Source of the DNA: Candidatus Iainarchaeum sp.
Lineage (GTDB): Archaea; Iainarchaeota; Iainarchaeia; Iainarchaeales; JACQJH01
Length of the DNA stretch: 32,000 nucleotides
NCBI GenBank assembly: GCA_016205145.1
Contig: JACQJH010000001.1
Coordinates: 360,001 to 392,000, forward strand
Direction of reading: 5' to 3'
The notes beneath the pieces are model-generated. The model saw nothing but the letters and a program-made list of their open reading frames with translations, made no database searches and was not told the DNA's origin. This document shows, piece by piece, positions 292 to 32,000 of the stretch; position 1 is the stretch's first letter; every line of letters starts with the position of its first letter. A program made the position numbers and the translations under genes.

Positions 292-1221
292 ATGGAATCT
301 GTTGTTGTAACGGGCGGTTCGGGCTTCATCGGTTCGCATCTCTGCGACCTTCTGCTTGGAAAAGGCCACAGGGTTTTCTGCGCCGACAATTTCTGCACGG
401 GGCAGAAAAAAAACGTGGCGCACCTTCTGGAGAACAGGAATTTTTCCCTGATTGAGCACGACATTGCAGTGCCACTGCGCCTTGATGAAAAAATCGGCAA
501 GGTTTTCAATCTCGCCTCGCCTGCATCGCCCGCGGATTTCGAAAAAATTCCCTTTGAAATCATCCGCACGAACACGGATGGCGTGAGGAACATGCTTGAG
601 TTCGCGAAAAAAAACAACGCGGTTTTCCTTCAGGCATCGACTTCCGAGGTTTATGGGGAGCCGCTGGAGCACCCGCAGAGGGAATCCTACAACGGCAATG
701 TTTCAATGCTGGGCGAAAGGGCGTGCTATGACGAGTCCAAGCGCCTTGCCGAAACCATTGTCAGCCTTTACCGCAGGAAACATGGAGTGGACGCGAAAAT
801 CATCCGCATTTTCAACACTTACGGGCCGCGCATGAGGGAAAACGACGGCCGCGTCATACCGAATTTCATTCCAAGCGCCCTCGCGGGAAAACCCATAACG
901 GTTTACGGCAACGGCTCGCAGACAAGGTCGTTCTGCTATGTTTCGGATCTGGTTGCAGGCATTCATGCCATGATGGATTCCAAGGCGCCCGGGCCCGTCA
1001 ATCTCGGCAACCCGCAGGAAATAACCGTCAAGGCGCTTGCGGAAAAAATTGTTGCGCTCACCGGCTCGAAATCGAGGATAGTTTTCAAACCGCTTCCGCA
1101 GGACGACCCCACAAGGCGGAAGCCCGACATTTCCCTTGCGAAAAAAGCGCTGGGCTGGGAACCGAAAGTTTCATTGGACGATGGCCTGAAAAAAACCATT
1201 GATTATTTTGCGGGCAGGTGA
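292..1221 (+). CDS. UDP-glucuronate decarboxylase (UDP-xylose synthase / ArnA-C-type extended SDR)
   Basis: Rossmann motif GGSGFIGSH is present. NFCTGQKKNV..FSLIEHDI, STSEVYG, YDESKR (Ser/Thr-Tyr-Lys triad) and RRKPDISLAKKALGWEP are hallmarks of the UXS family. The ORF-track start at 289 is GTG; the adjacent ATG at 292 was chosen. Confidence 0.85.
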   Translation: MESVVVTGGSGFIGSHLCDLLLGKGHRVFCADNFCTGQKKNVAHLLENRNFSLIEHDIAVPLRLDEKIGKVFNLASPASPADFEKIPFEIIRTNTDGVRNMLEFAKKNNAVFLQASTSEVYGEPLEHPQRESYNGNVSMLGERACYDESKRLAETIVSLYRRKHGVDAKIIRIFNTYGPRMRENDGRVIPNFIPSALAGKPITVYGNGSQTRSFCYVSDLVAGIHAMMDSKAPGPVNLGNPQEITVKALAEKIVALTGSKSRIVFKPLPQDDPTRRKPDISLAKKALGWEPKVSLDDGLKKTIDYFAGR

Positions 1222-1225
1222 GGCG

Positions 1226-2218
1226 ATGGCACTGCTGAAAACCGTGAAGGAAAACTTTGTTTTCGCGGTCCTTTTCCTGCAGGCCGCAATGTTCCTGTTT
1301 GGCTTCCTGGTGGTCCCGCATTCCGCTTACTCCATCGGAGATTCAAAGCATTACCTTCTCCAGATAGGCGATTTTTCGCGTTTCAATGCTCCGTCAGGCA
1401 ACAAGTTTCCGCTGTTTCCTGCGCTTGCCGCCATTCCGAATGTTTTGCTTGGCAATCCGGTTGCCTCCGCATTGCTCGTGCAGTTCCTTGCCTCGACCCT
1501 TGCACTGCTCGCGTTTTATTTCTGGACCGGCTCGAAAAGGCTCACGCTCGCATTCATGTTCTTCCCGCAGTTCATACTGTTCTCTCACGGCGTTTACTCC
1601 GAACCATTGTTCCTGCTGTTTGAAATCCTGGCCTTGTGGCTTTATTCGCAGGCCAGGCTTGCAAAGTCCTTTTTGATGCAGGGCGTTTCAATTCTCGCGC
1701 GCGGCACGGGCTTTTTCCTTTCCGCCGCGCTCGCCTTTTCAATGTTCCTGCAGCGCCGCAGGCTTTCAGACGCAAAATTCCTGCTTCTGCCTGCGGCGGG
1801 CGCGCTGCTGCTCTCAGCATACTATGCGGTTTTCTTTTCCGACCCATTCCAGCCGCTGGGCATTTTTTTGAGGGGCGGAGGCCTGCAGTTCTCTGTTCCC
1901 GCGATGAGCCTGAAAGAGCTTTTCGTTTCGGGCGCCGCAATTTTCCTTTTCATTGCGACAACGCTTTTCGCGTGGCTGCGCTTCAGGCAAAAACAGTCCG
2001 AAATTTTCTGGGTTTCGCTTGCGTTCTCCGCGTTCTACATCCCCAGCGGATTTTTCGGCCCGATACAGCTTCTGCCGGGGCAGATCGACCGCTTCTATCT
2101 GACGGTCCTGCCAATAACCCTCATCGTCTTCCGGCCCGAAATAGAAAGGCATTTCAAATTCATTCTGCCGGCATGCGTCATCGGGGCAATTGTTCTGGCG
2201 TACGGCTGGTGGTTTTAA
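1226..2218 (+). CDS. polytopic membrane protein, possibly a GT-C-like glycosyltransferase or glycan polymerase
   Basis: The track start (TTG 1199) overlaps the upstream gene. The ATG at 1226 lies 4 nt after the UXS stop and is preceded by caGGTGAGG. About 9-10 hydrophobic segments are present. The FPLFPALA and SEPLFLLFEILALW loops resemble PIG-V/DUF2029/GT-C enzymes, so the function is tentative. Confidence 0.5.
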   Translation: MALLKTVKENFVFAVLFLQAAMFLFGFLVVPHSAYSIGDSKHYLLQIGDFSRFNAPSGNKFPLFPALAAIPNVLLGNPVASALLVQFLASTLALLAFYFWTGSKRLTLAFMFFPQFILFSHGVYSEPLFLLFEILALWLYSQARLAKSFLMQGVSILARGTGFFLSAALAFSMFLQRRRLSDAKFLLLPAAGALLLSAYYAVFFSDPFQPLGIFLRGGGLQFSVPAMSLKELFVSGAAIFLFIATTLFAWLRFRQKQSEIFWVSLAFSAFYIPSGFFGPIQLLPGQIDRFYLTVLPITLIVFRPEIERHFKFILPACVIGAIVLAYGWWF

Positions 2219-2238
2219 CACGCAGTTTCGGCTGCGTG
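2219..2238 (+). terminator. perfect 7-bp hairpin directly after the stop codon (cacgcag-tttcgg-ctgcgtg); a T-run ttttatttt follows at 2279-2287
   Basis: Read directly: 2219-2225 is the reverse complement of 2232-2238, with a 6-nt loop. It sits in a convergent intergenic gap. Its role as a terminator is inferred only. Confidence 0.3.
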
Positions 2239-2256
2239 GAGCGACGACTGGTACTT

Positions 2257-2357
2257 CGCGCGGCTCAGTACCCATCTGTTTTATTTTCGCATTAAACATT
2301 CGGGGGTGTGAGGGGCGGCCCCTACACTGGAAGCCCGCGCGGCTCGATACCCATCTG
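2257..2357. repeat. two copies of a 22-nt direct repeat (2257-2278 cgcgcggctcagtacccatctg; 2336-2357 cgcgcggctcgatacccatctg)
   Basis: Hand alignment gives 20/22 identical, with an ag/ga swap in the middle. Both copies lie in the 142-nt gap between convergent genes. Confidence 0.6.
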
Positions 2358-3756: not shown

Positions 3757-4656
3757 ATGCGCGTTTCGGCTGTCCTGCCGGTTTTCAACGGCGAAAAGTT
3801 CGTCGCCGGCTGCATTGAATCTTTGCTCGCGCAGTCGAAAAAGTTTGATGAAATAATCGTCGTGGACGACGGCAGTTCGGATTCGACCGTGAAAATCTGC
3901 CGCGGCTTCGGCGTGAAAATAATCGAGCCAGGCCATGTCGGCAGGTCGCGCGCGCGCAATCTCGGCCTCAGGAAAGCAAGGCACGAAATAGTTTTTTTCG
4001 TCGAATCCGACGCGGTTTATTCGAAAAATTTCCTTGCCGACTGCCTGAAGCATTTTTCGGATTCCGATGTTGGCGGGGTCATCGGCAAACTTGAAGTGCG
4101 CAACCGCAATGAGAGCGCCTGGACAAGGTGCAGGGCGGCTGAGCTCGACTCAAGGTTTTCCGATTACAAGCCGTTCACTGCATGGATGTACCGCAAGGGC
4201 GTTGTTGAAAAGCTGGGCGGTTTTGACGAACGGATTGACGTGGGCGAGGATACCCTTCTCGGGGAAAAGGTGCGGCGTTCGGGCCTGAGGCTTGTTTATG
4301 AGCCCAATGCCGTGTGGAAGCACCTGGAGCCGGCTTCCCTGCGCGCTGTATTGCGGAAGTCGTGGCAGCGCGGCCTGGGTTTGGGCCAGAAACACGTTGT
4401 GCTTGGGCTTTTTCCAAAAATCCTGCCCGCGGACGCGATTTTTTTCGCATTCTTTTTCATGGGCATTTTGAATGTTTTTTTCCTGCTCGCGGCCTTCGCT
4501 TTCATTTGCGCCCAGCTTTTCGTGCGGAGGAAACAGTTTTTTTTCATAGGGCGGCGCTTTTGGCCGCACCTAGTTTTTTTTCTCGTGCTTAACATCCTGG
4601 CTTTCAAGGCGGCGAGGCTTCTTGGAACTGTTTTTTTCGTTTTGAAGGGTGCGTGA
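3757..4656 (+). CDS. family 2 glycosyltransferase with C-terminal membrane segments
   Basis: VLPVFNGEKFV...IIVVDDGSSDST and FFVESDAVY form a GT-A fold with a DxD-like motif. The last ~80 aa (FFAFFFMGILNVFFLLAAFAFI...VFFLVLNILAF) are hydrophobic. Confidence 0.85.
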   Translation: MRVSAVLPVFNGEKFVAGCIESLLAQSKKFDEIIVVDDGSSDSTVKICRGFGVKIIEPGHVGRSRARNLGLRKARHEIVFFVESDAVYSKNFLADCLKHFSDSDVGGVIGKLEVRNRNESAWTRCRAAELDSRFSDYKPFTAWMYRKGVVEKLGGFDERIDVGEDTLLGEKVRRSGLRLVYEPNAVWKHLEPASLRAVLRKSWQRGLGLGQKHVVLGLFPKILPADAIFFAFFFMGILNVFFLLAAFAFICAQLFVRRKQFFFIGRRFWPHLVFFLVLNILAFKAARLLGTVFFVLKGA

Positions 4657-21900: not shown

Positions 21901-23148
21901 TTACCTGTGCGCCGTTATGCGTTCATAAAATTTTTCATACCGTTCAACGGCTTTTTCCTGCGAATATTTTTCCTTGACGCGTTCAAGCGCCTTGCTTCCT
22001 AGGATTTTCGCTTTTCCCGCATTCTGCAGCACTTCGAGTATTTTTTCCGCCAAATCGTTTTCGTTGCCCGGCTTAAATGACAGGCCGGCGCCGCCTTGGA
22101 TGACTTCGGCCATGCCGTCGATTTTGCTTGCAATGCACGGCTTTTTGCACGCCATCGCCTCGACAAGCGAGTTCGGAGTCGTGTCAAAAAAGCTCGGCAG
22201 GACAAATGCGTCGCACGAATTGCAGTAAAGGGGCATTTTTTCCCTTTCAATGCTGCCGCGGAATTCCACTTTATTTTCAATGCCCAAGCTTTTTGCCAGC
22301 GCCTTCAGGTTTTCCTCTTCCGCGCCTTTTCCGGCAATCACAAGGTTTGCCTTTTCATCGCTTGCGCAGACCCTGCGCATTGCATTCAGCAGGACATCGC
22401 AGCCCTTCCATTTCACGAGTCGCGCGGAAAACAAAACCGCTTTGCCATGCATTCCAGTCTGCACGCGCGCCTTTTCTTTCGGCATTGGCGCAAACTTTTT
22501 CATGTCCACGCCGTTTGGCAGGACCGAAACCTTGCCTTCATGCACGCCGCGCTTAACCAAAAACTTTTTTCCGCCATCCGCATCCGCGGCAATGAAGTCG
22601 GCGCTTTTGAAATACCAGTCCTCGACCTTGTGCAGGATTCCCGCAACGCCTTTTCTGTGGGCAAGCGTTCCATCAAGCCCTTTCCTGCAATCCCAGTCCG
22701 GAAAATTCTTGATTGACAGGTACTCGTAGACCATGTCGCCGCCGTATTTCATCACGCATGGTTTTTCCGCCAAAATTTTTTTCGCAAGGCAGAGGCTGAA
22801 AGCGCCGGTTGAAAGGTCGTGCGAGTGGAAAACGTCGTTGTCCCGGTTTTCGAGGATTTTTTTTGCGAATGCAACCGAGCCGATTGCCATGTTCGCGTTG
22901 CTGAATTCAAGGCTTCCTTCAAGCGTGAACGCGCGTTTTATTTTCACGCCGCTTTTTTCGCTTTCCTTGGGCCGGCCCTTCATTTTCTGTGTTATGACCG
23001 TAATCTCAAACCCTTTCCGTGCGAGGCTTTCGGACAGAATCTCCAAAAAAGAGCCGCTGCCACCGACTTTCGGCGGGTAGAAGCGCGAAACCATGCAGAT
23101 TTTCAACAAAACACCTGTGTGGGGTGCAAAGAACTTGGCCTTCCCCAT
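21901..23148 (-). CDS. GT4-family (GT-B fold) glycosyltransferase
   Basis: KICMVSRFYPPKVGGSGSF at the N-terminus and the C-terminal EX7E-like region (LPSFFDTTPNSLVEAMACKKPCIAS) are present. An alternative TTG start at 23106, preceded by AGGTG, would give MKICMVS. Confidence 0.9.
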   Translation of the reverse strand: MGKAKFFAPHTGVLLKICMVSRFYPPKVGGSGSFLEILSESLARKGFEITVITQKMKGRPKESEKSGVKIKRAFTLEGSLEFSNANMAIGSVAFAKKILENRDNDVFHSHDLSTGAFSLCLAKKILAEKPCVMKYGGDMVYEYLSIKNFPDWDCRKGLDGTLAHRKGVAGILHKVEDWYFKSADFIAADADGGKKFLVKRGVHEGKVSVLPNGVDMKKFAPMPKEKARVQTGMHGKAVLFSARLVKWKGCDVLLNAMRRVCASDEKANLVIAGKGAEEENLKALAKSLGIENKVEFRGSIEREKMPLYCNSCDAFVLPSFFDTTPNSLVEAMACKKPCIASKIDGMAEVIQGGAGLSFKPGNENDLAEKILEVLQNAGKAKILGSKALERVKEKYSQEKAVERYEKFYERITAHR

Positions 23149-26634: not shown

Positions 26635-28059
26635 TCACTTTTCCAGCAGGCTTTTTCCCTGCAGATCCTTTGGCTTTTCCTCACCCAGAATGTCCATCAT
26701 CGTCGGGAACACGTCCAGAATGCTGATTGTCCCCATGTCGCCGCGCCCGCCGATTTTTTCGTCGACAATGACAAAGCTGCCTTCCGGCGCATGCCCCGCG
26801 TCATCGCTGCCGACTGTCGTCGAGGTTGAATAAAGCCCCTTGTTGCCCACGTCATTGTTCACGCCCCAGACAAGGTTGTCGAAGTAGACAATCATTTCCG
26901 GGCATTCGTCATCGAAGCCGTTTTTGTAAATGTCCTTCGCAAAAAAGACCTTGTTGTCGAGCTTTTCGCCTTTCCCGCCCCTGATTGCCAAAAGCTTTTT
27001 TTCAAGTTCCCCGCCGAGCCAATCGCATTCGTCTTTTCCGAGAATGCCCTTGTGGCCCAATGCCTTCCTGTCCCGGTTGAGATAGATTCTTCCCTGATAG
27101 CCGCCGACCGCAAATGCTTTTGTCTTCTGCCAGTCGATGCCTGAAAGCCTCAGCCTTGCGGGCTTTTCCGCGGTTTCGTTTTCAAATTCCTTTTTGAGAA
27201 CAAGATAGCCTTCCCTGCGCAGCCAGTCGTTGAGGTTGACGCGGCCGTCCATGCGCTCCATGCCGTGGTCGGATGAAACAATGATGCTGGTGTTGTCCGG
27301 CAGCAATTTGAGCAGTTCGCCCAATTTTTTGTCCACGAAAGCGTAAAAGTCGCGCACCGCGTTTTTGTACGGCGAATCCCCTTGGAAGTTTACATGCTTT
27401 TCGTCGAAGAACCGCCAGAGCATGTGGTTCAGCCTGTCGGTTCCAATCACAACCGCCATGAAAAAATCCCATTCCTTGTTTTTGAGGCAGTGCTCCATCA
27501 GCTTGAAGTGCATTTCCGTCATCTTGTAGGTGCGGTTCAGCAGATCGTCCACGTCAAGTTTCTTGTAGCCTGTGAACCCGGCAACGTCAAAAACGTATTC
27601 CTCGCCGCCAAGGAGTTCAAGCATTTCTTTTTTGAATTCTTCCGGATAAACGCAGTCGTACTTGAAGCCAGGCGTCATGAAATCTGAAACCATTATCCCG
27701 TTTATTTTCCTGACCGGGAAAGTGAGCGGCACGTTCAGCACAACGCTTTTTTTCCCCTTTTCCGAGAGGATGTCCCAAATCTGCGGCTTTTTTTTCAGCG
27801 TCGAGTCCACAAGCCTTACTCCGTCGCTTTGCGGCTCGAAGCGCGTGTAAGAGTAAACCCCCAATTCACCCGGATCCCTGCCGGATGCAAGGGCATTCCA
27901 TGCAATTATAGTGCTCGGCGGAACAGTCGACCTGATTTTGGCATACGCGCCTTTTTCCATCAGCCTTGAAATGTTGGGCAGATGCTTTTTCCACTCGCCG
28001 AAAACGAGCTTCGGCGGAGCGCCGTCAATGCCGAAAACGAAAACCTTTTTGCCTGCCAT
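26635..28059 (-). CDS. alkaline-phosphatase-superfamily enzyme (type I phosphodiesterase/nucleotide pyrophosphatase family)
   Basis: FVFGIDGAPP (metal Asp), TVPPSTIIAWNALASG (nucleophile Thr region) and IVSSDHGM are present. The ATG at 28059 (MAGKKVFVF) was preferred over the TTG at 28083. A TATA-like atttatt lies about 23 nt upstream. Confidence 0.8.
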   Translation of the reverse strand: MAGKKVFVFGIDGAPPKLVFGEWKKHLPNISRLMEKGAYAKIRSTVPPSTIIAWNALASGRDPGELGVYSYTRFEPQSDGVRLVDSTLKKKPQIWDILSEKGKKSVVLNVPLTFPVRKINGIMVSDFMTPGFKYDCVYPEEFKKEMLELLGGEEYVFDVAGFTGYKKLDVDDLLNRTYKMTEMHFKLMEHCLKNKEWDFFMAVVIGTDRLNHMLWRFFDEKHVNFQGDSPYKNAVRDFYAFVDKKLGELLKLLPDNTSIIVSSDHGMERMDGRVNLNDWLRREGYLVLKKEFENETAEKPARLRLSGIDWQKTKAFAVGGYQGRIYLNRDRKALGHKGILGKDECDWLGGELEKKLLAIRGGKGEKLDNKVFFAKDIYKNGFDDECPEMIVYFDNLVWGVNNDVGNKGLYSTSTTVGSDDAGHAPEGSFVIVDEKIGGRGDMGTISILDVFPTMMDILGEEKPKDLQGKSLLEK

Positions 28060-28161
28060 GAAAAAACCCTGCCAGACCGCCAATAAATCTTAATTAGTCT
28101 TAATTAACTATAATTGGCGGATTTTTAAACCTTTTTGGTGCAATCGCCGGTTCTTTGCATA

Positions 28162-28818
28162 TTATTTTGATTTGTTCCAATTGCAGTATCCGCATTCTTC
28201 CGCGGCGCGCGGTTCCGAGCCATTCAGCGTTTTTAGCGCGTTGTCGAATATTTTTTGCGCGTTTTCAGTTGAAATTTTCATTTTTTTGAGGTCGCTGTGG
28301 AATACCGCGTCGCCGTTTTCATTGATTTTGTTTGGATGGTAGAACAGCAGGTAGGCGTAGTCTTCCGTTTTGTGGCCGTTTTTTCTGAGCAAAAAGTTGT
28401 ACAAATCCATTTGGTCCTGGTAGTGTTCGTGGGTGTCGTCCTTGCACGGATAGCCCCTTGTCTTGAAGTCCAGGACGACAAGCCTGCCTTTGTGCACCAA
28501 AAGGTTGTCAACCGCGCCCATCAAAACGTTGCCTTGGCCGTCTATCCAGCGGATGCCCCTGAAATTGTTGCGCCAATCATCCAGCAGGGCCTTGTCGTCG
28601 AAAAGCCTGTATTCGCCGTCCAATTCCTTCAATTCCGGCGGCAGTCTGCCCTTGTCCCTGAACGAGTCAAAATGCTCCTTCAAAACCCTGTCCATTCCGG
28701 ACGGCAGGGAAGGAAAGATTCCGGAGGGCCGCTTCACGCCCTTGTTGAACTGCAGCCAAAAACAGCGCGGGCAATCCTTCAGCAAAGACAAAGACGATGG
28801 GGAGAATTTGTAGGGCAT
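28162..28818 (-). CDS. Cas4/RecB-like PD-(D/E)XK nuclease with four Cys (CxxC...CxxC)
   Basis: SPSSLSLLKDCPRCFW at the N-terminus, GAVDNLL-x9-LVVLDFKT (D...D-x-K), QDQMDLYNFLL (QxxxY) and C-terminal ECGYCNW are present. There is no adjacent cas1/cas2 or CRISPR array. Confidence 0.75.
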   Translation of the reverse strand: MPYKFSPSSLSLLKDCPRCFWLQFNKGVKRPSGIFPSLPSGMDRVLKEHFDSFRDKGRLPPELKELDGEYRLFDDKALLDDWRNNFRGIRWIDGQGNVLMGAVDNLLVHKGRLVVLDFKTRGYPCKDDTHEHYQDQMDLYNFLLRKNGHKTEDYAYLLFYHPNKINENGDAVFHSDLKKMKISTENAQKIFDNALKTLNGSEPRAAEECGYCNWNKSK

Positions 28819-28825
28819 TATTCAA

Positions 28826-29002
28826 TCACTTCAATTGTTTGAAATATTTCAGCATCCTTATTGTTTGTAAAATGGCGGCATCATATTTTCCTATTTCATT
28901 AATTTCTTTTATCAGCGTGGGTATTAAATCATCAAAAAAAAGTACTTTAATATTTTTTTCTTGAAGTTTTTTCACCCAATAATCTAATTTTACTTTGCCC
29001 AT
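28826..29002 (-). CDS. unlisted 58-codon ORF (MGKVKLDYWVKKLQEKNIKVLFFDDLIPTLIKEINEIGKYDAAILQTIRMLKYFKQLK), or a +1-frame extension of the upstream gene
   Basis: Translated by hand codon by codon. It runs from ATG 29002-29000 to TGA 28828-28826. It is below the 60-aa cut-off of the supplied track. It overlaps the 3' end of gene 28947..30173 by 56 nt and ends 7 nt before the Cas4-like ATG. It is open despite the very AT-rich context. Confidence 0.35.
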   Translation of the reverse strand: MGKVKLDYWVKKLQEKNIKVLFFDDLIPTLIKEINEIGKYDAAILQTIRMLKYFKQLK

Positions 29003-30173
29003 TTAAAAATTTGTAAGCCGGAATCAATTTCGTGATTTCTTCACTTACTGTTATTAAAAATTCTTTTTTGTGAAGGTCAGAATAATCTCGTGGATAAATT
29101 TTTTTTATTGCAAATTGAAAAAGTTTCCGGTTTTTTATTTTTTTAATTAAATATTCTGTGTCATTTTTTTTGAAATATTTTCCAGTTTCTATTTCAAGAA
29201 TGGTACTTTCTTTCTTTTCTCTTGGGCGAATCATCACTTTGTCATCAAGTCTTATTTTATGTTCTTGTAACTTTTGGCAAATTTTTGTAAATTCTGCTGG
29301 TTTTGCTTCTATTTGGTTAAGTACTTTTTTTGTTGCTATTTTTCCTTCGGCCCATAGTTCTACCCCAAAACCATTTTCGTTTAGATATACTGAATAATGA
29401 ATCTTTTGTACAATTGACAGTTTTGAATCTTTGTCATCATATATTGCCGACCAGACGCCCCTGGAATCTTTTTTTAAATTGCCAACTGGTTTATGATTTG
29501 GTTTTTGGAATGGCTGGCCTTTTTTGATTTTTTCAAATAGTTCGTTGCTAAATTGTTCAAATTTTCTTTTTACTACTTCTCTTTTTTCTCTGATTGGATC
29601 TTCGTCTATATTTAAAAATGCGTCAAAATCACTTTTTTTAAATCCTAAAAAACTGCTCAAACCCATTACCTCCATAAATTCGGTAAATTGTGATATTAAA
29701 AATTGATCTTTTTCGGTTAATGCAGGTATTTCTTGGATTTTTTTTGTTATTTCCTGCCAGGTAAAAAACTTAGCGTTAATATTTTCTGTAATTTTTTTGC
29801 TTTGTGGATCTTTAGTCAAAACTAGCAAAATATTATTATCTTTTTTTGGGTCAAATTCAATTTTGTGATTTTTTAACTGTTCTAATGTGAGTTTGGCTTG
29901 AACTTTTGATTCAATTACAATTCTTGTTTTTTCATAATCTATCACTGCATCAGGGGTGGATTTGATTGACTTTGTTTGAAGCTGAAAAATTGTGTTTTTT
30001 GCAATTGGGAGTTCAAGTTTTTTAAATATTTTGTTTTTTGTGTCCTCGCTACAAAATTCGAGCAAATTTATGAGTGATTTGGTGACATTATTTTCAATTT
30101 GATAATCTATTTTGTTCTTATTAGATGACTGGCTGCGATAGTAAAAGAAGATGTTTTGGTGCGGATCTTTCAT
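28947..30173 (-). CDS. PD-(D/E)XK nuclease-fold protein (N-terminal ~130 aa) fused to a ~270-aa uncharacterised region
   Basis: IENNVTKSLINLLEF ... PDAVIDYEKTRIVIESKVQAKLTLEQLKNH gives an E / PD / E-x-K / Q pattern. The remainder is Lys/Glu-rich alpha/beta with no motif I recognise. The ATG overlaps the upstream stop (ATGA at 30170-30173). G+C is about 22-27% by hand count on sample lines. Confidence 0.7.
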   Translation of the reverse strand: MKDPHQNIFFYYRSQSSNKNKIDYQIENNVTKSLINLLEFCSEDTKNKIFKKLELPIAKNTIFQLQTKSIKSTPDAVIDYEKTRIVIESKVQAKLTLEQLKNHKIEFDPKKDNNILLVLTKDPQSKKITENINAKFFTWQEITKKIQEIPALTEKDQFLISQFTEFMEVMGLSSFLGFKKSDFDAFLNIDEDPIREKREVVKRKFEQFSNELFEKIKKGQPFQKPNHKPVGNLKKDSRGVWSAIYDDKDSKLSIVQKIHYSVYLNENGFGVELWAEGKIATKKVLNQIEAKPAEFTKICQKLQEHKIRLDDKVMIRPREKKESTILEIETGKYFKKNDTEYLIKKIKNRKLFQFAIKKIYPRDYSDLHKKEFLITVSEEITKLIPAYKFLNGQSKIRLLGEKTSRKKY

Positions 30174-30820
30174 TTTTTTATCATCATTGAATTTTCATTA
30201 TTTTTCATGCGTATTTTTTTTGTATTTGGATATTTGCCGTTGTGGTCAAGAATATATTCGAATTCCTTGAACCACTGTGTTTCTTGTTGATTTCTCCAGA
30301 GTTCTAGTTCCTTGTTTCTAATGTTGATTTTAGTGCCATTTACAAATTCTCTTAGCGCATGGCAGTATGCGATGTACTGCGTTTCATCATTAGTATTAGT
30401 CAGCGTGTCTTGAAAGTAGGCAACTATTCTGAAGTCAAAAACAGCGTATTTGTCTGGCAATTTGAATGCAAGTATTGCAGATAGCATTGGCAGATTAATG
30501 CCTTTGGCCCCTTCTCGTTTAAGTTCCAGAAGTGCCGCTTTTATTTTTTTACGTTCAATATCTGCGCTTAAATTAGATTCTTTTAGGTCGGCCAGTAATT
30601 TATTCAATATGGTAGTGTGTTTATCTTTATCAAAATGACGGCGAATTCGTGGGGATTTCCAGTTTGCTATTGCCTTAAGCTGTATATGGGTAAGTTCGCT
30701 ATTGACAATTTTTTTGGAGGCTTCTAACTGAGAGTCCCTCTTTTGAACGGGCTCTTTTAGACACACTAAAATTTTTTTGGTGATTTCTTGCAACTCGGCG
30801 GGTTCGTCCATTTTGTTCAC
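30170..30820 (-). CDS. HhH-GPD-like (endonuclease III-type helix-hairpin-helix) protein, possible DNA glycosylase or DNA-binding module
   Basis: GINLPMLSAILAFKLPDKYAVFDFRIVAY aligns without gaps to the remembered E. coli Nth segment [29 protein letters not shown], including the Asp. The start is GTG at 30820 or ATG at 30811. Confidence 0.6.
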   Translation of the reverse strand: MNKMDEPAELQEITKKILVCLKEPVQKRDSQLEASKKIVNSELTHIQLKAIANWKSPRIRRHFDKDKHTTILNKLLADLKESNLSADIERKKIKAALLELKREGAKGINLPMLSAILAFKLPDKYAVFDFRIVAYFQDTLTNTNDETQYIAYCHALREFVNGTKINIRNKELELWRNQQETQWFKEFEYILDHNGKYPNTKKIRMKNNENSMMIKK

Positions 30821-30827
30821 ATTCTTG

Positions 30828-31892
30828 CTATTTTTCCTGCGTTGTTTGGTTTGTGTGTTTGTCGTTTATTTCAAATTTGACTTTGTAGTATTTTAGGCTT
30901 ATTTGGTTTTCCACCGGCATTATAGCATAGTCGAGCCTGTTGTCCGGCTCGTTTGTGATTATTATTGCCCTCGCGTTTTCTGATTTGTTCTTTTTTATCC
31001 AGCCCAGGTATCTGAGGGTTTGCCCGACGACTTCGTCGCTTGACCGGCCTTTTTTGAGTTCTATTATGACTTGTTTGCCTTTTTGGTCTTTGCATAGCAG
31101 GTCTATTTTTCCGACTTCTTTTGTGTTGAATTCTTTTTCCGTTAATTGCAGTCCTTTTTCTATCAAATGCGGGTTTTTTGCGAGGTATTCTTTCAGGTCT
31201 TTTTCCAATGAGATTGACGAGTAGTTTTCGAGGATTTCTTCCGGCATTTCAGGGTTTGCGGATTTTTTGCCAAACCATATGAGGTTGTTTACCGACGTGT
31301 ATTTTTCGGTTCCGAGCAGGTTTTTGATTTCTTCGAAAATTATGAAGTTTGTCAGGTAGTCTATTGTTCTGTCCAAGTACTTTGTCGGGTCATCAATGTT
31401 AAAGTGGCGCATTGCCAGTTCATAGGCTTTTTCTTCCTGTTGGGGGCCCAGGTTGAGGGCTTCGGTTGTTTGCCAGGTTATCAGGGGAAATTTTGACGGG
31501 TCTTTGGCGACCAAAAATTGGGAGAGCGTTTGCTGGCCAATTCCTTTGAGCTTAAAGAATTCGTTGACCCTGTTGACAAAGTCGGTTTCGTTTCCAAACA
31601 AAAGCGCGCGCAGTTTTTCGTTGAATTGTTCCAAGCCATTTTCCCGGTATAAAAGGTTTGAAAGCGCCCTGTTGTTGGAAAAATTTCTCATTAAATGAAA
31701 AATCGTGTCAAAATCTTCCGAAGCCAAGTTGTTTCCGGAATCAAAGTTTTTGTCATTGAATATTTTGCTTATTTCCTGTTCTGCCTTGTCTTCCTCGGCT
31801 TTCCACAGCATTGCCTTTTCGGTTTGAAGGCTTTCATTCCATGCCCGCAATTTGTCTATTTGCTCTTCGTAAAAAATTTCACTCACAACCAA
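30828..31892 (-). CDS. two-domain protein: N-terminal HhH-like module plus C-terminal NucS/DUF91-type PD-(D/E)XK endonuclease domain
   Basis: The C-terminus GKIDLLCKDQKGKQVIIELKKGRSSDEVVGQTLRYLGWIKKN...ARAIIITNE is a NucS-like core. The N-terminal LKGIGQQTLSQFLVAKDPSKFPLI is an HhH-like hairpin. The track start is TTG at 31892; a GTG at 31886 has better spacing from AGGTGA. Confidence 0.75.
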   Translation of the reverse strand: MVVSEIFYEEQIDKLRAWNESLQTEKAMLWKAEEDKAEQEISKIFNDKNFDSGNNLASEDFDTIFHLMRNFSNNRALSNLLYRENGLEQFNEKLRALLFGNETDFVNRVNEFFKLKGIGQQTLSQFLVAKDPSKFPLITWQTTEALNLGPQQEEKAYELAMRHFNIDDPTKYLDRTIDYLTNFIIFEEIKNLLGTEKYTSVNNLIWFGKKSANPEMPEEILENYSSISLEKDLKEYLAKNPHLIEKGLQLTEKEFNTKEVGKIDLLCKDQKGKQVIIELKKGRSSDEVVGQTLRYLGWIKKNKSENARAIIITNEPDNRLDYAIMPVENQISLKYYKVKFEINDKHTNQTTQEK

Positions 31893-31904
31893 TCACCTGA
31901 AAGT

Positions 31905-32000
31905 TCACATTCTCGCAATCTTTCCCGCGTCCGTCAGCTTGAATCCTTTTCCGTCTTCTGTTTCTTCGATGAAGCCTCGTTGTTTCAGTTCTTTTAGGTT
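31905..32000 (-). CDS. 3' end of a gene encoding a winged-helix-like C-terminus (...NLKELKQRGFIEETEDGKGFKLTDAGKIARM*), with the 5' end outside the window
   Basis: Hand translation of the minus strand from nt 32000 gives an open frame ending at TGA 31907-31905, 12 nt upstream of the next gene. The L..GlI....dG...LT..G pattern is typical of wHTH wings. The fragment is too short to be in the ORF track. Confidence 0.5.
   Translation of the reverse strand, partial: NLKELKQRGFIEETEDGKGFKLTDAGKIARM

Follow-up and report, generated by a model that had tools for sequence, protein, structure and literature searches.

We analysed a 32,000-nt stretch of a Candidatus Diapherotrites metagenome-assembled genome (MAG; a DPANN archaeon), referred to throughout as the window, and in particular the string of genes at its end (28162-32000), which we call F, A, B, C, D and E in the order of their reading. 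An earlier note on this DNA had described the string as a nuclease-rich system of six genes with no recognisable counterpart. The six co-directional minus-strand open reading frames (ORFs) of that description were all present at the same positions and with the same junctions (Table 1): 12 nt separate F from A and 7 nt A from B, B and C share an ATGA, C and D overlap by 56 nt, and 7 nt lie between D and E. For A and B the start position is uncertain by a few codons. In public gene calls A begins at the GTG at 31886 (352 aa), 6 nt after AGGTGA, and this GTG is the probable true start; B is called from the ATG at 30811 (213 aa). F, A, B and C are probably co-transcribed. As we describe below, A is predicted to be a glycosylase-like sensor fused to a nuclease, and B and C are predicted to divide the same two roles between two proteins.

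Table 1. Genes, domains and other features of the string, and the glycosylase-like neighbours of C homologues in other loci (positions of the neighbours are those of the locus named; GC3, G+C content at third codon positions; HhH, helix-hairpin-helix; HMM, hidden Markov model; UDG, uracil-DNA glycosylase)
Feature	Position	Strand	G+C	GC3	Description
F	31905-32000	-			partial: 3' end, 31 codons; gene runs past the window
Repeat copy 1	31903-31930	-			ACGCGGGAAAGATTGCGAGAATGTGAAC; spans the end of F, stop codon included
A	30828-31892	-	0.41	0.52	354 aa
A, N-terminal domain	31257-31892	-			aa 1-212, all-helical OGG/EndoIII-like HhH
A, C-terminal domain	30873-31208	-			aa 229-340, NucS-type PD-(D/E)XK
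Repeat copy 2	30815-30842	-			ACGCAGGAAAAATAGCAAGAATGTGAAC; extends from the end of A over the 7-nt gap to the GTG with which B starts
B	30170-30820	-	0.37	0.37	216 aa
C	28947-30173	-	0.29	0.23	408 aa
C, PD-(D/E)XK core	29724-30092	-			aa ~28-150
C, C-terminal domain	28998-29651	-			aa ~175-392, DUF1054/YktB fold
D	28826-29002	-			58-aa ORF
TATA-like AAATATTT	28842-28849	-			24 nt upstream of the ATG of E
E	28162-28818	-	0.50	0.69	218 aa
Host genes			0.50-0.54	0.61-0.67	
L104, B-like	3757-4335				downstream of C homologue, overlapping; B HMM 8e-47
L109, B-like	913-1584				upstream of C homologue, 4-nt overlap; B HMM 1e-13; hhalign 96.7%
L110	3331-3957				upstream of C homologue; DUF6308 1e-4; hhalign E 1.7e-4
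L114	4736-5536				upstream of C homologue, overlapping; Ogg-HhH 1.5e-4
L093, UNG-like, UDG superfamily	1568-2296				downstream of C homologue, 10-nt gap; UDG 6.6e-8

A composition scan of the window located a collapse in G+C content at about 28,850, and the DNA from 28.85 to 32 kb forms a low-GC island (29-41% G+C, against 50-54% for the host). This drop, together with the four differing compositions of A, B, C and E, indicates that F, A, B and C sit in foreign DNA of mixed origin and that E is resident by composition. The proposal that the block was horizontally acquired and is of a defence type agreed with its low G+C content and with the defence genes that adjoin its homologues. No ORF in 28162-32000 was a methyltransferase by Pfam, NCBIfam or PADLOC, so that none cognate to restriction-modification (R-M) systems of types I-III, BREX or DISARM was seen in this part. 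Of the other absences that the note had reported, several held as well: the window contained no tandem or CRISPR-like array (and no tRNA or Rfam RNA), and no cas gene was recognised, nor a methyltransferase, helicase or integrase by Pfam, among the window ORFs scanned, the remaining ORFs being unscanned.

Gene A consists of two domains, and its C-terminal domain was recognised by Pfam as NucS_C (6.9e-17, aa 230-314). In 25 homologues the residues D264, E278, K280, Q291, R294 and Y295 of this nuclease core were invariant, which is the D-ExK-Q..RY core of NucS/EndoMS (2vld, 5gke). A profile search of the PDB with this domain matched NucS 2vld at 6e-11 and EndoMS 5gke at 2e-7, and Foldseek matched 5gke at 2.6e-5 (AF2 model of A, predicted local distance difference test score, pLDDT, 85.5). 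A is thus homologous to NucS/EndoMS in its C-terminal domain, with an OGG-like N-terminus in place of the NucS N-terminal domain. The NCBIfam equivalog for NucS, NF003270, has a cut-off of 216 bits; A reached 69 bits and aligned over aa 223-315 only, so that A, lacking the NucS N-terminal domain, is not NucS itself. Nor does A fall under Shedu (SduA): the SduA_C (DUF4263) nuclease domain was matched by four of the 25 family members with a best E value of 0.011, and there was no PADLOC Shedu match. The PADLOC candidates PDC-S02, S11 and S18 matched A over the nuclease domain only (for PDC-S02, positions 161-306 of 308, and so not at full length); they have the NucS_C domain in common with A, and the N-terminal domain of A is different.

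The two HhH modules that had been noticed in A and B proved to be homologous to each other, as hhalign aligned the A-family with the B-family over aa 52-147 (probability 81%, E 1.2e-5). The HMM of B also matched A, as well as the N-terminal domains of NucS_C fusions in four fetched loci (L024, L025, L034 and L045). In Foldseek the N-terminal domain of A matched the archaeal glycosylase SsoOgg 3fhg (E 0.034, probability 0.94, template modelling (TM) score 0.38), and the A-family profile found nothing beyond NucS among PDB sequences. Within the HhH motif of A, LKGIGQQTLSQFLVAKDPSKFPLIT, Q121 stands at the site of the Schiff-base Lys of Ogg and T139 at that of the catalytic Asp; the Lys column was Q in 25 of 25 homologues and the Asp column T, S or N. 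The N-terminal domain of A is, by these residues, a putative catalytically inactive glycosylase, predicted to be able to act only as a sensor.

This architecture has a counterpart, so that the claim of the earlier note that nothing comparable was known no longer applies to A. Nucleases bearing an inactivated EndoIII/OGG-like sensor were published as END nucleases in 2025 (Yee et al. 2025, bioRxiv, PMC12191111), and in the passages of that article cited here the sensor is partnered with a phospholipase D (PLD), a NucS-like PD-DExK or a McrB GTPase. In one of them, END-Mag (MDV2503288.1), a 'NucS'-like PD-DExK is joined to an iEndoIII sensor, with 3FHG as the best template, and the enzyme is described there as restricting phages with modified guanines (PMC12191111). 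A, likened to END-Mag by this described architecture and not by sequence, is likewise a single chain of a dead HhH sensor and a NucS-type nuclease, and for both sensors archaeal Ogg 3FHG is the closest structural relative; like the END nucleases as described in those passages, A is also a single gene without a methyltransferase that is found in defence islands. The sensor of A is N-terminal. A differs from END-Mag in that it comes from a DPANN archaeon. The same logic, a dead glycosylase domain that senses hypermodified bases broadly, is described for END-PaCF1 (PLD nuclease and iEndoIII; PMC12191111), the sensor of which matches Pfam OGG PF21790, as do some members of the B family; its nuclease is of the phospholipase-D type and N-terminal, whereas those of A and C are PD-(D/E)XK. 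MDV2503288.1 was not among the accessions shown for ten clusters of A homologues, most of which list no accession. Judged by its domain architecture, A would be a new member of the family described in 2025.

About 85 full-length homologues of A, 50-60% identical, were found in Bathyarchaeia, Nitrosopumilaceae, Omnitrophota, Dehalococcoidia and other lineages, and such identity across archaea and bacteria indicates that A has spread horizontally. These homologues adjoin type I R-M genes (L090, L091), Mrr_cat genes (L091, L092) and integrases, and their flanking genes are mutually unrelated. No homologue of B, C, D or E was found by tblastn within 10 kb of the A relatives in 79 loci, with the exception of L075, where the nuclease is of a NucS_C architecture different from that of A. 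As its homologues occur without B, C and E, A is an autonomous single-gene module. Two tandem ORFs of 338 and 364 aa, both with a match to the OGG-like N-terminal domain, were observed in L045 (8855-10963), and this pair may represent duplicated END-type nucleases of different specificities.

A is also set apart within the string itself, as it is bracketed exactly by a 28-nt imperfect direct repeat with 24 of 28 positions identical and its copies 1088 nt apart. In 60 composition-preserving block-shuffles of 27500-32000, the best repeats reached 20-22 of 28. Because F and A read the repeat in different frames, it is a duplication at the DNA level and not a protein homology. A was probably inserted between F and B as a cassette of about 1.09 kb, and the simplest reading of the sequence is an ancestral F-B-C unit in which the ATGTGA stop of F would have overlapped the GTG start of B before A entered. 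The repeat was also considered as a general site for cassettes, and this was rejected, as its 14-nt core was found only in contigs of this genome.

Gene B encodes a standalone OGG-like protein that is very rare. A word-indexed search with B returned only B itself, and phmmer with the single sequence found 32 proteins among 1.84e9 cluster representatives, namely B and 31 distant relatives of about 155-290 aa, in which W54, K55, G107, S114, L117 and D129 are invariant. Some members match Pfam OGG PF21790, DUF6308 or Ogg-HhH. Against the PDB, the family profile matched the Ogg2 glycosylases 9o00 (8e-6) and 3fhf (2e-4), and also 3knt, 3fhg and 3n0u, to 1e-3. B aligned with Ogg2 (MjaOgg 3fhf/3knt, SsoOgg 3fhg, 9o00) over three motifs: the HhH (GVxxPxASAIL against GxGxKEASHFL), the one with the Asp (IDFR against IDRH, or IDRH against FDFR) and a C-terminal one, (E/L)D..(I/L)W or LDxALW. 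At the site of the Schiff-base Lys of Ogg, B has Pro111, while the catalytic Asp, D129, is kept; B thus lacks the Lys of the Ogg2 motif G-x-K-x-A-S and has the Asp that follows about 18-22 residues later, and A has neither. An additional invariant WKSPR, a foreign composition and the coupling to a nuclease further distinguish B from Ogg2. B departs from the END pattern as well, since its Asp129 is invariant, so that the sensor is not fully inactivated, and since it is not fused to a nuclease.

Gene C matched no Pfam, NCBIfam or PADLOC family. Nine homologues were found among 5.8e9 clusters and 50 loci in JGI metagenomes, where the homologues are 24-36% identical to C, and no relatives of C were found in IMG/VR viral contigs. 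In an alignment of ten homologues, the residues E27, D75, E88 and K90 were invariant, and Foldseek with the N-terminal domain of the model (AF2; pLDDT 80.4, predicted TM score 0.76) matched AF1548 1y88, MspJI 4f0p, Bax1, R2 endonuclease and Can2, as well as viral models annotated 'PD-(D/E)XK' or 'restriction endonuclease'. The C-terminal 215 residues share the fold of DUF1054/YktB (2a8e, E 9.4e-6, TM(target) 0.72; 3mqz, 2e-3, TM 0.68). Pfam gave no sequence-level match to DUF1054, a profile search of PDB sequences found nothing significant for C, and no functional study of DUF1054/YktB was found in the literature. The known DUF1054 proteins are standalone, without a nuclease fusion; in C the domain could serve as a module for binding DNA or a partner. 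The N-terminal peptide of C, MKDPHQNIFFYYR...D.Q.E.N.TK (residues 1-27, 30093-30173), is almost invariant in a family that is 28-56% identical overall, is predicted to be unstructured (pLDDT <50), and may be an element that binds a partner or DNA. One C homologue (P0009) was observed on a bacterial phage- or plasmid-like contig, L007 (1-18007), with a large terminase, a ParB-methyltransferase and a sigma-70 factor.

B and C meet in the window in an ATGA start/stop overlap, through which C is predicted to be translationally coupled to B. Comparable neighbours were found in five unrelated metagenome loci. Among about 50 C loci, four carry an HhH/OGG-like gene and one a UDG-like gene, and all five of these genes touch C (Table 1). 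The C homologues of L104 and L109 are 30-36% identical to C, the junctions in L109, L110 and L114 are 4-nt overlaps or 0-nt gaps, and the partner in L093 carries the VIILGQDPY and HPA motifs. As the B family is so rare, the chance of an accidental B-C adjacency is negligible. The link was seen by the metagenome scan and HMM search and not by the first three contexts of C, where BLASTP to B found no similarity in the C neighbours (L004, L007, L008). Nor did a common partner family emerge when the genes tightly upstream of C were compared all against all by BLASTP, and by hhalign most of the tight neighbours are unrelated to B; as most C homologues are without a B-like neighbour, C need not have such a partner. 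The B-C pair is, judging from gene order, a recurrent and non-obligatory module. Other neighbours of C homologues are of defence type: type I R-M (L004, L097), OLD/AAA_15 (L137, L094), HNH (L119), NOV_C (L125), CARF-winged helix-turn-helix (wHTH; L104) and WYL (L130).

B-like genes are not confined to C. In L075 (394-1877, a Parcubacteria MAG), a B-like OGG gene overlaps the stop of a full-length PDC-S02 NucS_C nuclease (4.7e-88, profile positions 2-306), and PDC-S02, listed as a single-gene candidate, may therefore sometimes be a two-gene system. The occurrence of B-like genes with C and with this PDC-S02 nuclease indicates that a sensor-like subunit pairs with different nucleases, and the OGG-like and UNG-like partners indicate that C, in turn, pairs with glycosylases of two unrelated superfamilies. 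Of the gene set that the earlier note had taken together, only the B-C pair was found to recur elsewhere.

Based on these observations, we propose that 28.85-32.0 kb is the visible portion of a horizontally acquired defence island with two separate modules, in each of which a glycosylase-like HhH protein or domain would inspect or flip odd bases and a PD-(D/E)XK nuclease would cut. We give this explanation, taken as a whole, a probability of about 0.6. In the first module, the dead glycosylase domain of A would recognise modified bases and its NucS_C domain would cleave, as in END-Mag. In the second, B would find a modified base, and perhaps excise it, and C would then cleave the marked DNA. 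F would regulate the unit, into which A would have entered as a cassette between F and B. As neither module has a methyltransferase, both would be type IV-like, and the suggestion that cleavage depends on modified or odd bases is retained here as the best reading. Type IV enzymes (MspJI, McrBC, SauUSI) are likewise without a methyltransferase and join a base-flipping reader to a nuclease; their readers are different (SRA, EVE and others), and there is no GTPase or helicase in the A and B-C modules. The domain identities, the loss or retention of catalytic residues, the compositions and the gene neighbourhoods are observed; we infer what the substrates are, in which order the steps run and that B and C interact. 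With respect to END-Mag as described in the passages cited (PMC12191111), B and C differ in being separate genes, in the Asp that B keeps and in a nuclease that is not of the NucS type. We therefore view B-C as a split variant with a retained Asp and another kind of nuclease; PADLOC 2.0 does not contain it, and no description of it was found in the literature.

Several observations weigh against this explanation. The N-terminal domain of A belongs to no Pfam family, no Pfam OGG model matches any of the 25 members, and our confidence in its identity, drawn from profile-profile and weak fold evidence, is moderate; its likeness to END-Mag is one of architecture. The partners of C in L110 and L114 score under the Pfam gathering thresholds, and most C homologues have other tight neighbours (ADP-ribosylglycohydrolase, YgjP, HAD, SurE) or none. 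The GC3 values of B and C (0.37 vs 0.23) are odd for a long-standing pair. The Asp kept by B may be structural only, and a methyltransferase or further partner may sit past nt 32000, outside the window. Finally, we know of no virus of this host.

In a variant of this explanation, possible if somewhat doubtful, B is an enzyme and not a pure sensor: an active monofunctional glycosylase that removes the modified base from invader DNA, with C cutting at or near the resulting abasic sites. The distribution of the Asp speaks for this: it is invariant in 30 of 30 standalone B-family proteins and is kept by the B-like proteins of L104, L109, L110, L114 and L075, whereas it is lost, as T, S or N, in the OGG-like domains that are fused to NucS_C (the 25 A homologues and L024, L025, L034 and L045). 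Monofunctional HhH glycosylases such as MutY and AlkA need the Asp and not the Lys. The UNG-like partner of C in L093 carries the catalytic GQDPY. A precedent is Brig1, a glycosylase-only defence that lacks a nuclease partner and differs in fold (cited in PMC12191111). However, the Asp also caps a helix in the HhH fold, so that its retention is no proof of catalysis, and C has no recognisable AP-endonuclease or AP-lyase (abasic-site) fold. The loss of the Asp in the fused form and its retention in the standalone form suggest a path from excision-based to sensing-only immunity.

A broader form of this idea, which we put forward tentatively and consider doubtful, is that B-C, with an optional Cas4-like/DUF2779 gene and a helix-turn-helix (HTH) regulator, constitutes an undescribed glycosylase-initiated multi-gene restriction system. 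An active monofunctional HhH enzyme (or an UNG-like one, as in L093) would excise modified bases from invading DNA, and the PD-(D/E)XK-DUF1054 nuclease would make lethal breaks at abasic or glycosylase-bound sites. If so, the kept Asp would separate B-C mechanistically from the sensing-only END nucleases.

That A, B, C and E are chance neighbours, independent single-gene defence or selfish genes gathered in one hot spot, is unlikely. Defence islands are mosaic, and the differing GC3 values of B and C, the many C homologues without a B-like neighbour and the pairing of a B-like gene with a different nuclease in L075 all fit such a view, but the ATGA overlap in the window is echoed by the junctions of L109, L110 and L114, and four HhH/OGG-like genes and one UDG-like gene would all have to have come to touch C in about 50 loci, the B family itself being extremely rare.

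Quite unlikely, in our judgement, is the original proposal of the earlier note, in which F, A, B, C, (D) and E are a single defence machine with three cooperating nucleases. The tight packing, the common orientation and the probable co-transcription of F-A-B-C are what such a machine would display, and two loci resemble it in part: L104, where a CARF-wHTH, C homologue, B-like and DUF2779 string resembles F, B, C and E, and L103, where a NucS_C protein follows a C homologue. This proposal was not borne out by the 79 A-relative loci, which apart from L075 have no B, C, D or E within 10 kb, or by the unrelated genes around A homologues; the four composition classes, the 28-nt duplication that brackets A like a later insertion, and the host-like composition and own TATA-like element of E also stand against it.

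Very unlikely is a role in repair, in which NucS/EndoMS-like, Ogg-like and Cas4/RecB-like genes would form a mobile or accessory set for base excision or mismatch repair of host or mobile-element DNA. For it speak the repair families from which the domains come (NucS, Ogg2, RecB/Cas4), the possibility that reduced DPANN genomes borrow repair genes, and the C homologue on the phage-like contig with a terminase (L007). Against it, A lacks the NucS N-domain (69 vs 216 bits), both catalytic residues are gone from its Ogg-like domain, B has no Ogg lyase Lys, the composition is foreign, the spread is patchy (nine cluster matches for C in 5.8e9), R-M, Mrr, OLD, HNH, integrase and CARF/WYL regulator genes lie nearby, and the 50-60% identity of bacterial and archaeal A homologues indicates horizontal spread.

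The remaining genes of the string were considered in the light of the two-module explanation. The translation of F ends in ...KELKQRGFIEETEDGKGFKLTDAGKIARM before the stop codon. The upstream wHTH fragment that had been noticed here is present, and its support in Pfam was limited to faint matches (MksE, HVO_A0261_N, HTH_45 and PadR; E 0.01-0.15). HTH regulators also stand upstream of C homologues (CARF-wHTH, WYL and AsnC in L104, L130 and L004), and F is probably a small winged-helix regulator gene, the first in the transcription unit. D matched no Pfam, NCBIfam or PADLOC family and had no homologue in the fetched loci except in the same genome. With its 27% G+C and its 56-nt overlap with the end of C, D is probably a spurious ORF, and we regard its region as an AT-rich spacer that bears the candidate promoter of E. 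This is the TATA-like AAATATTT, a candidate archaeal promoter from which E would give a leaderless or short-leader transcript.

E matched Pfam PDDEXK_1 (2.3e-13) and PADLOC Cas4 (1e-8), so that all three PD-(D/E)XK cores of the earlier description (in A, C and E) are real. It shares RecB motifs and four cysteines (positions 16, 19, 209 and 212) with solo Cas4 proteins, and neither cas1, cas2 nor another cas gene was recognised nearby among the ORFs scanned, nor a CRISPR or other repeat array in the window. On TIGR00372 (cas4) it scored 25 bits against a cut-off of 65, which is below the equivalog threshold. The earlier observations of a host-like composition and of a TATA-like element upstream were both correct, and we consider E a solo Cas4/RecB-family nuclease, resident at the border of the island and probably with its own promoter. 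A link of E with the B-C module is favoured by one pattern, as in L004, L104 and L105 the gene directly after the C homologue is a Cas4-like DUF2779 gene, and is opposed by the host composition of E. DUF2779 proteins combine a Cas4-like domain with an RNase H-like domain, and E lacks the DUF2779 C-terminal half; between E and the DUF2779 N-terminal domains the motifs are collinear, and the hhalign E value of 0.13 is not significant, a likeness at the level of the superfamily.

The gene order of L104 deserves mention. L104 (1943-5783) contains an overlapping string of a CARF-wHTH gene (PADLOC CARF3, 5.8e-67), a C homologue, a B-like OGG gene and a DUF2779 gene, which recalls F, B, C and E and may be a fuller B-C module under regulation of a cyclic-oligonucleotide type.

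If A works as an END nuclease, this class of enzymes would reach DPANN archaea as well as many lineages of uncultured archaea and bacteria, and the viruses of those lineages would commonly modify their DNA. B-C would show the glycosylase-like sensor as a separate and exchangeable subunit, which goes with two nucleases (C and PDC-S02) and can be replaced by a UDG-superfamily protein. Enzymes of the A and B-C kinds could also be practical reagents for the detection of unknown DNA modifications.

Exact matches to the proteins were confined to short Logan contigs from SRR12113383-5. Two contigs, L001 and L002, end at the G+C border, and a variable presence of the island between strains was considered on this basis. 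This was rejected, as the unaligned 19-20 nt of L001 (1-20) and L002 (1-19) are the Nextera/Tn5 mosaic-end adapter AGATGTGTATAAGAGACAG, an artefact that could pass for a strain-variable junction.

The first 23.8 kb of the window are a surface-glycan biosynthesis cluster, which is followed by genes for APS kinase, ATP sulfurylase, pyruvate kinase and a phosphodiesterase-family protein, all at about 50-54% G+C. Members recognised in the 1-25600 region include a UDP-glucose dehydrogenase, MBOAT, PMT_2, a carbamoyltransferase, a flippase, three DegT aminotransferases and a GT4, the last of which (21901-23148) also matches Pfam 'GT4-conflict' (2e-8). Such a cluster, together with ATP sulfurylase and APS kinase in a DPANN archaeon, hints at a sulfated cell-surface glycan.

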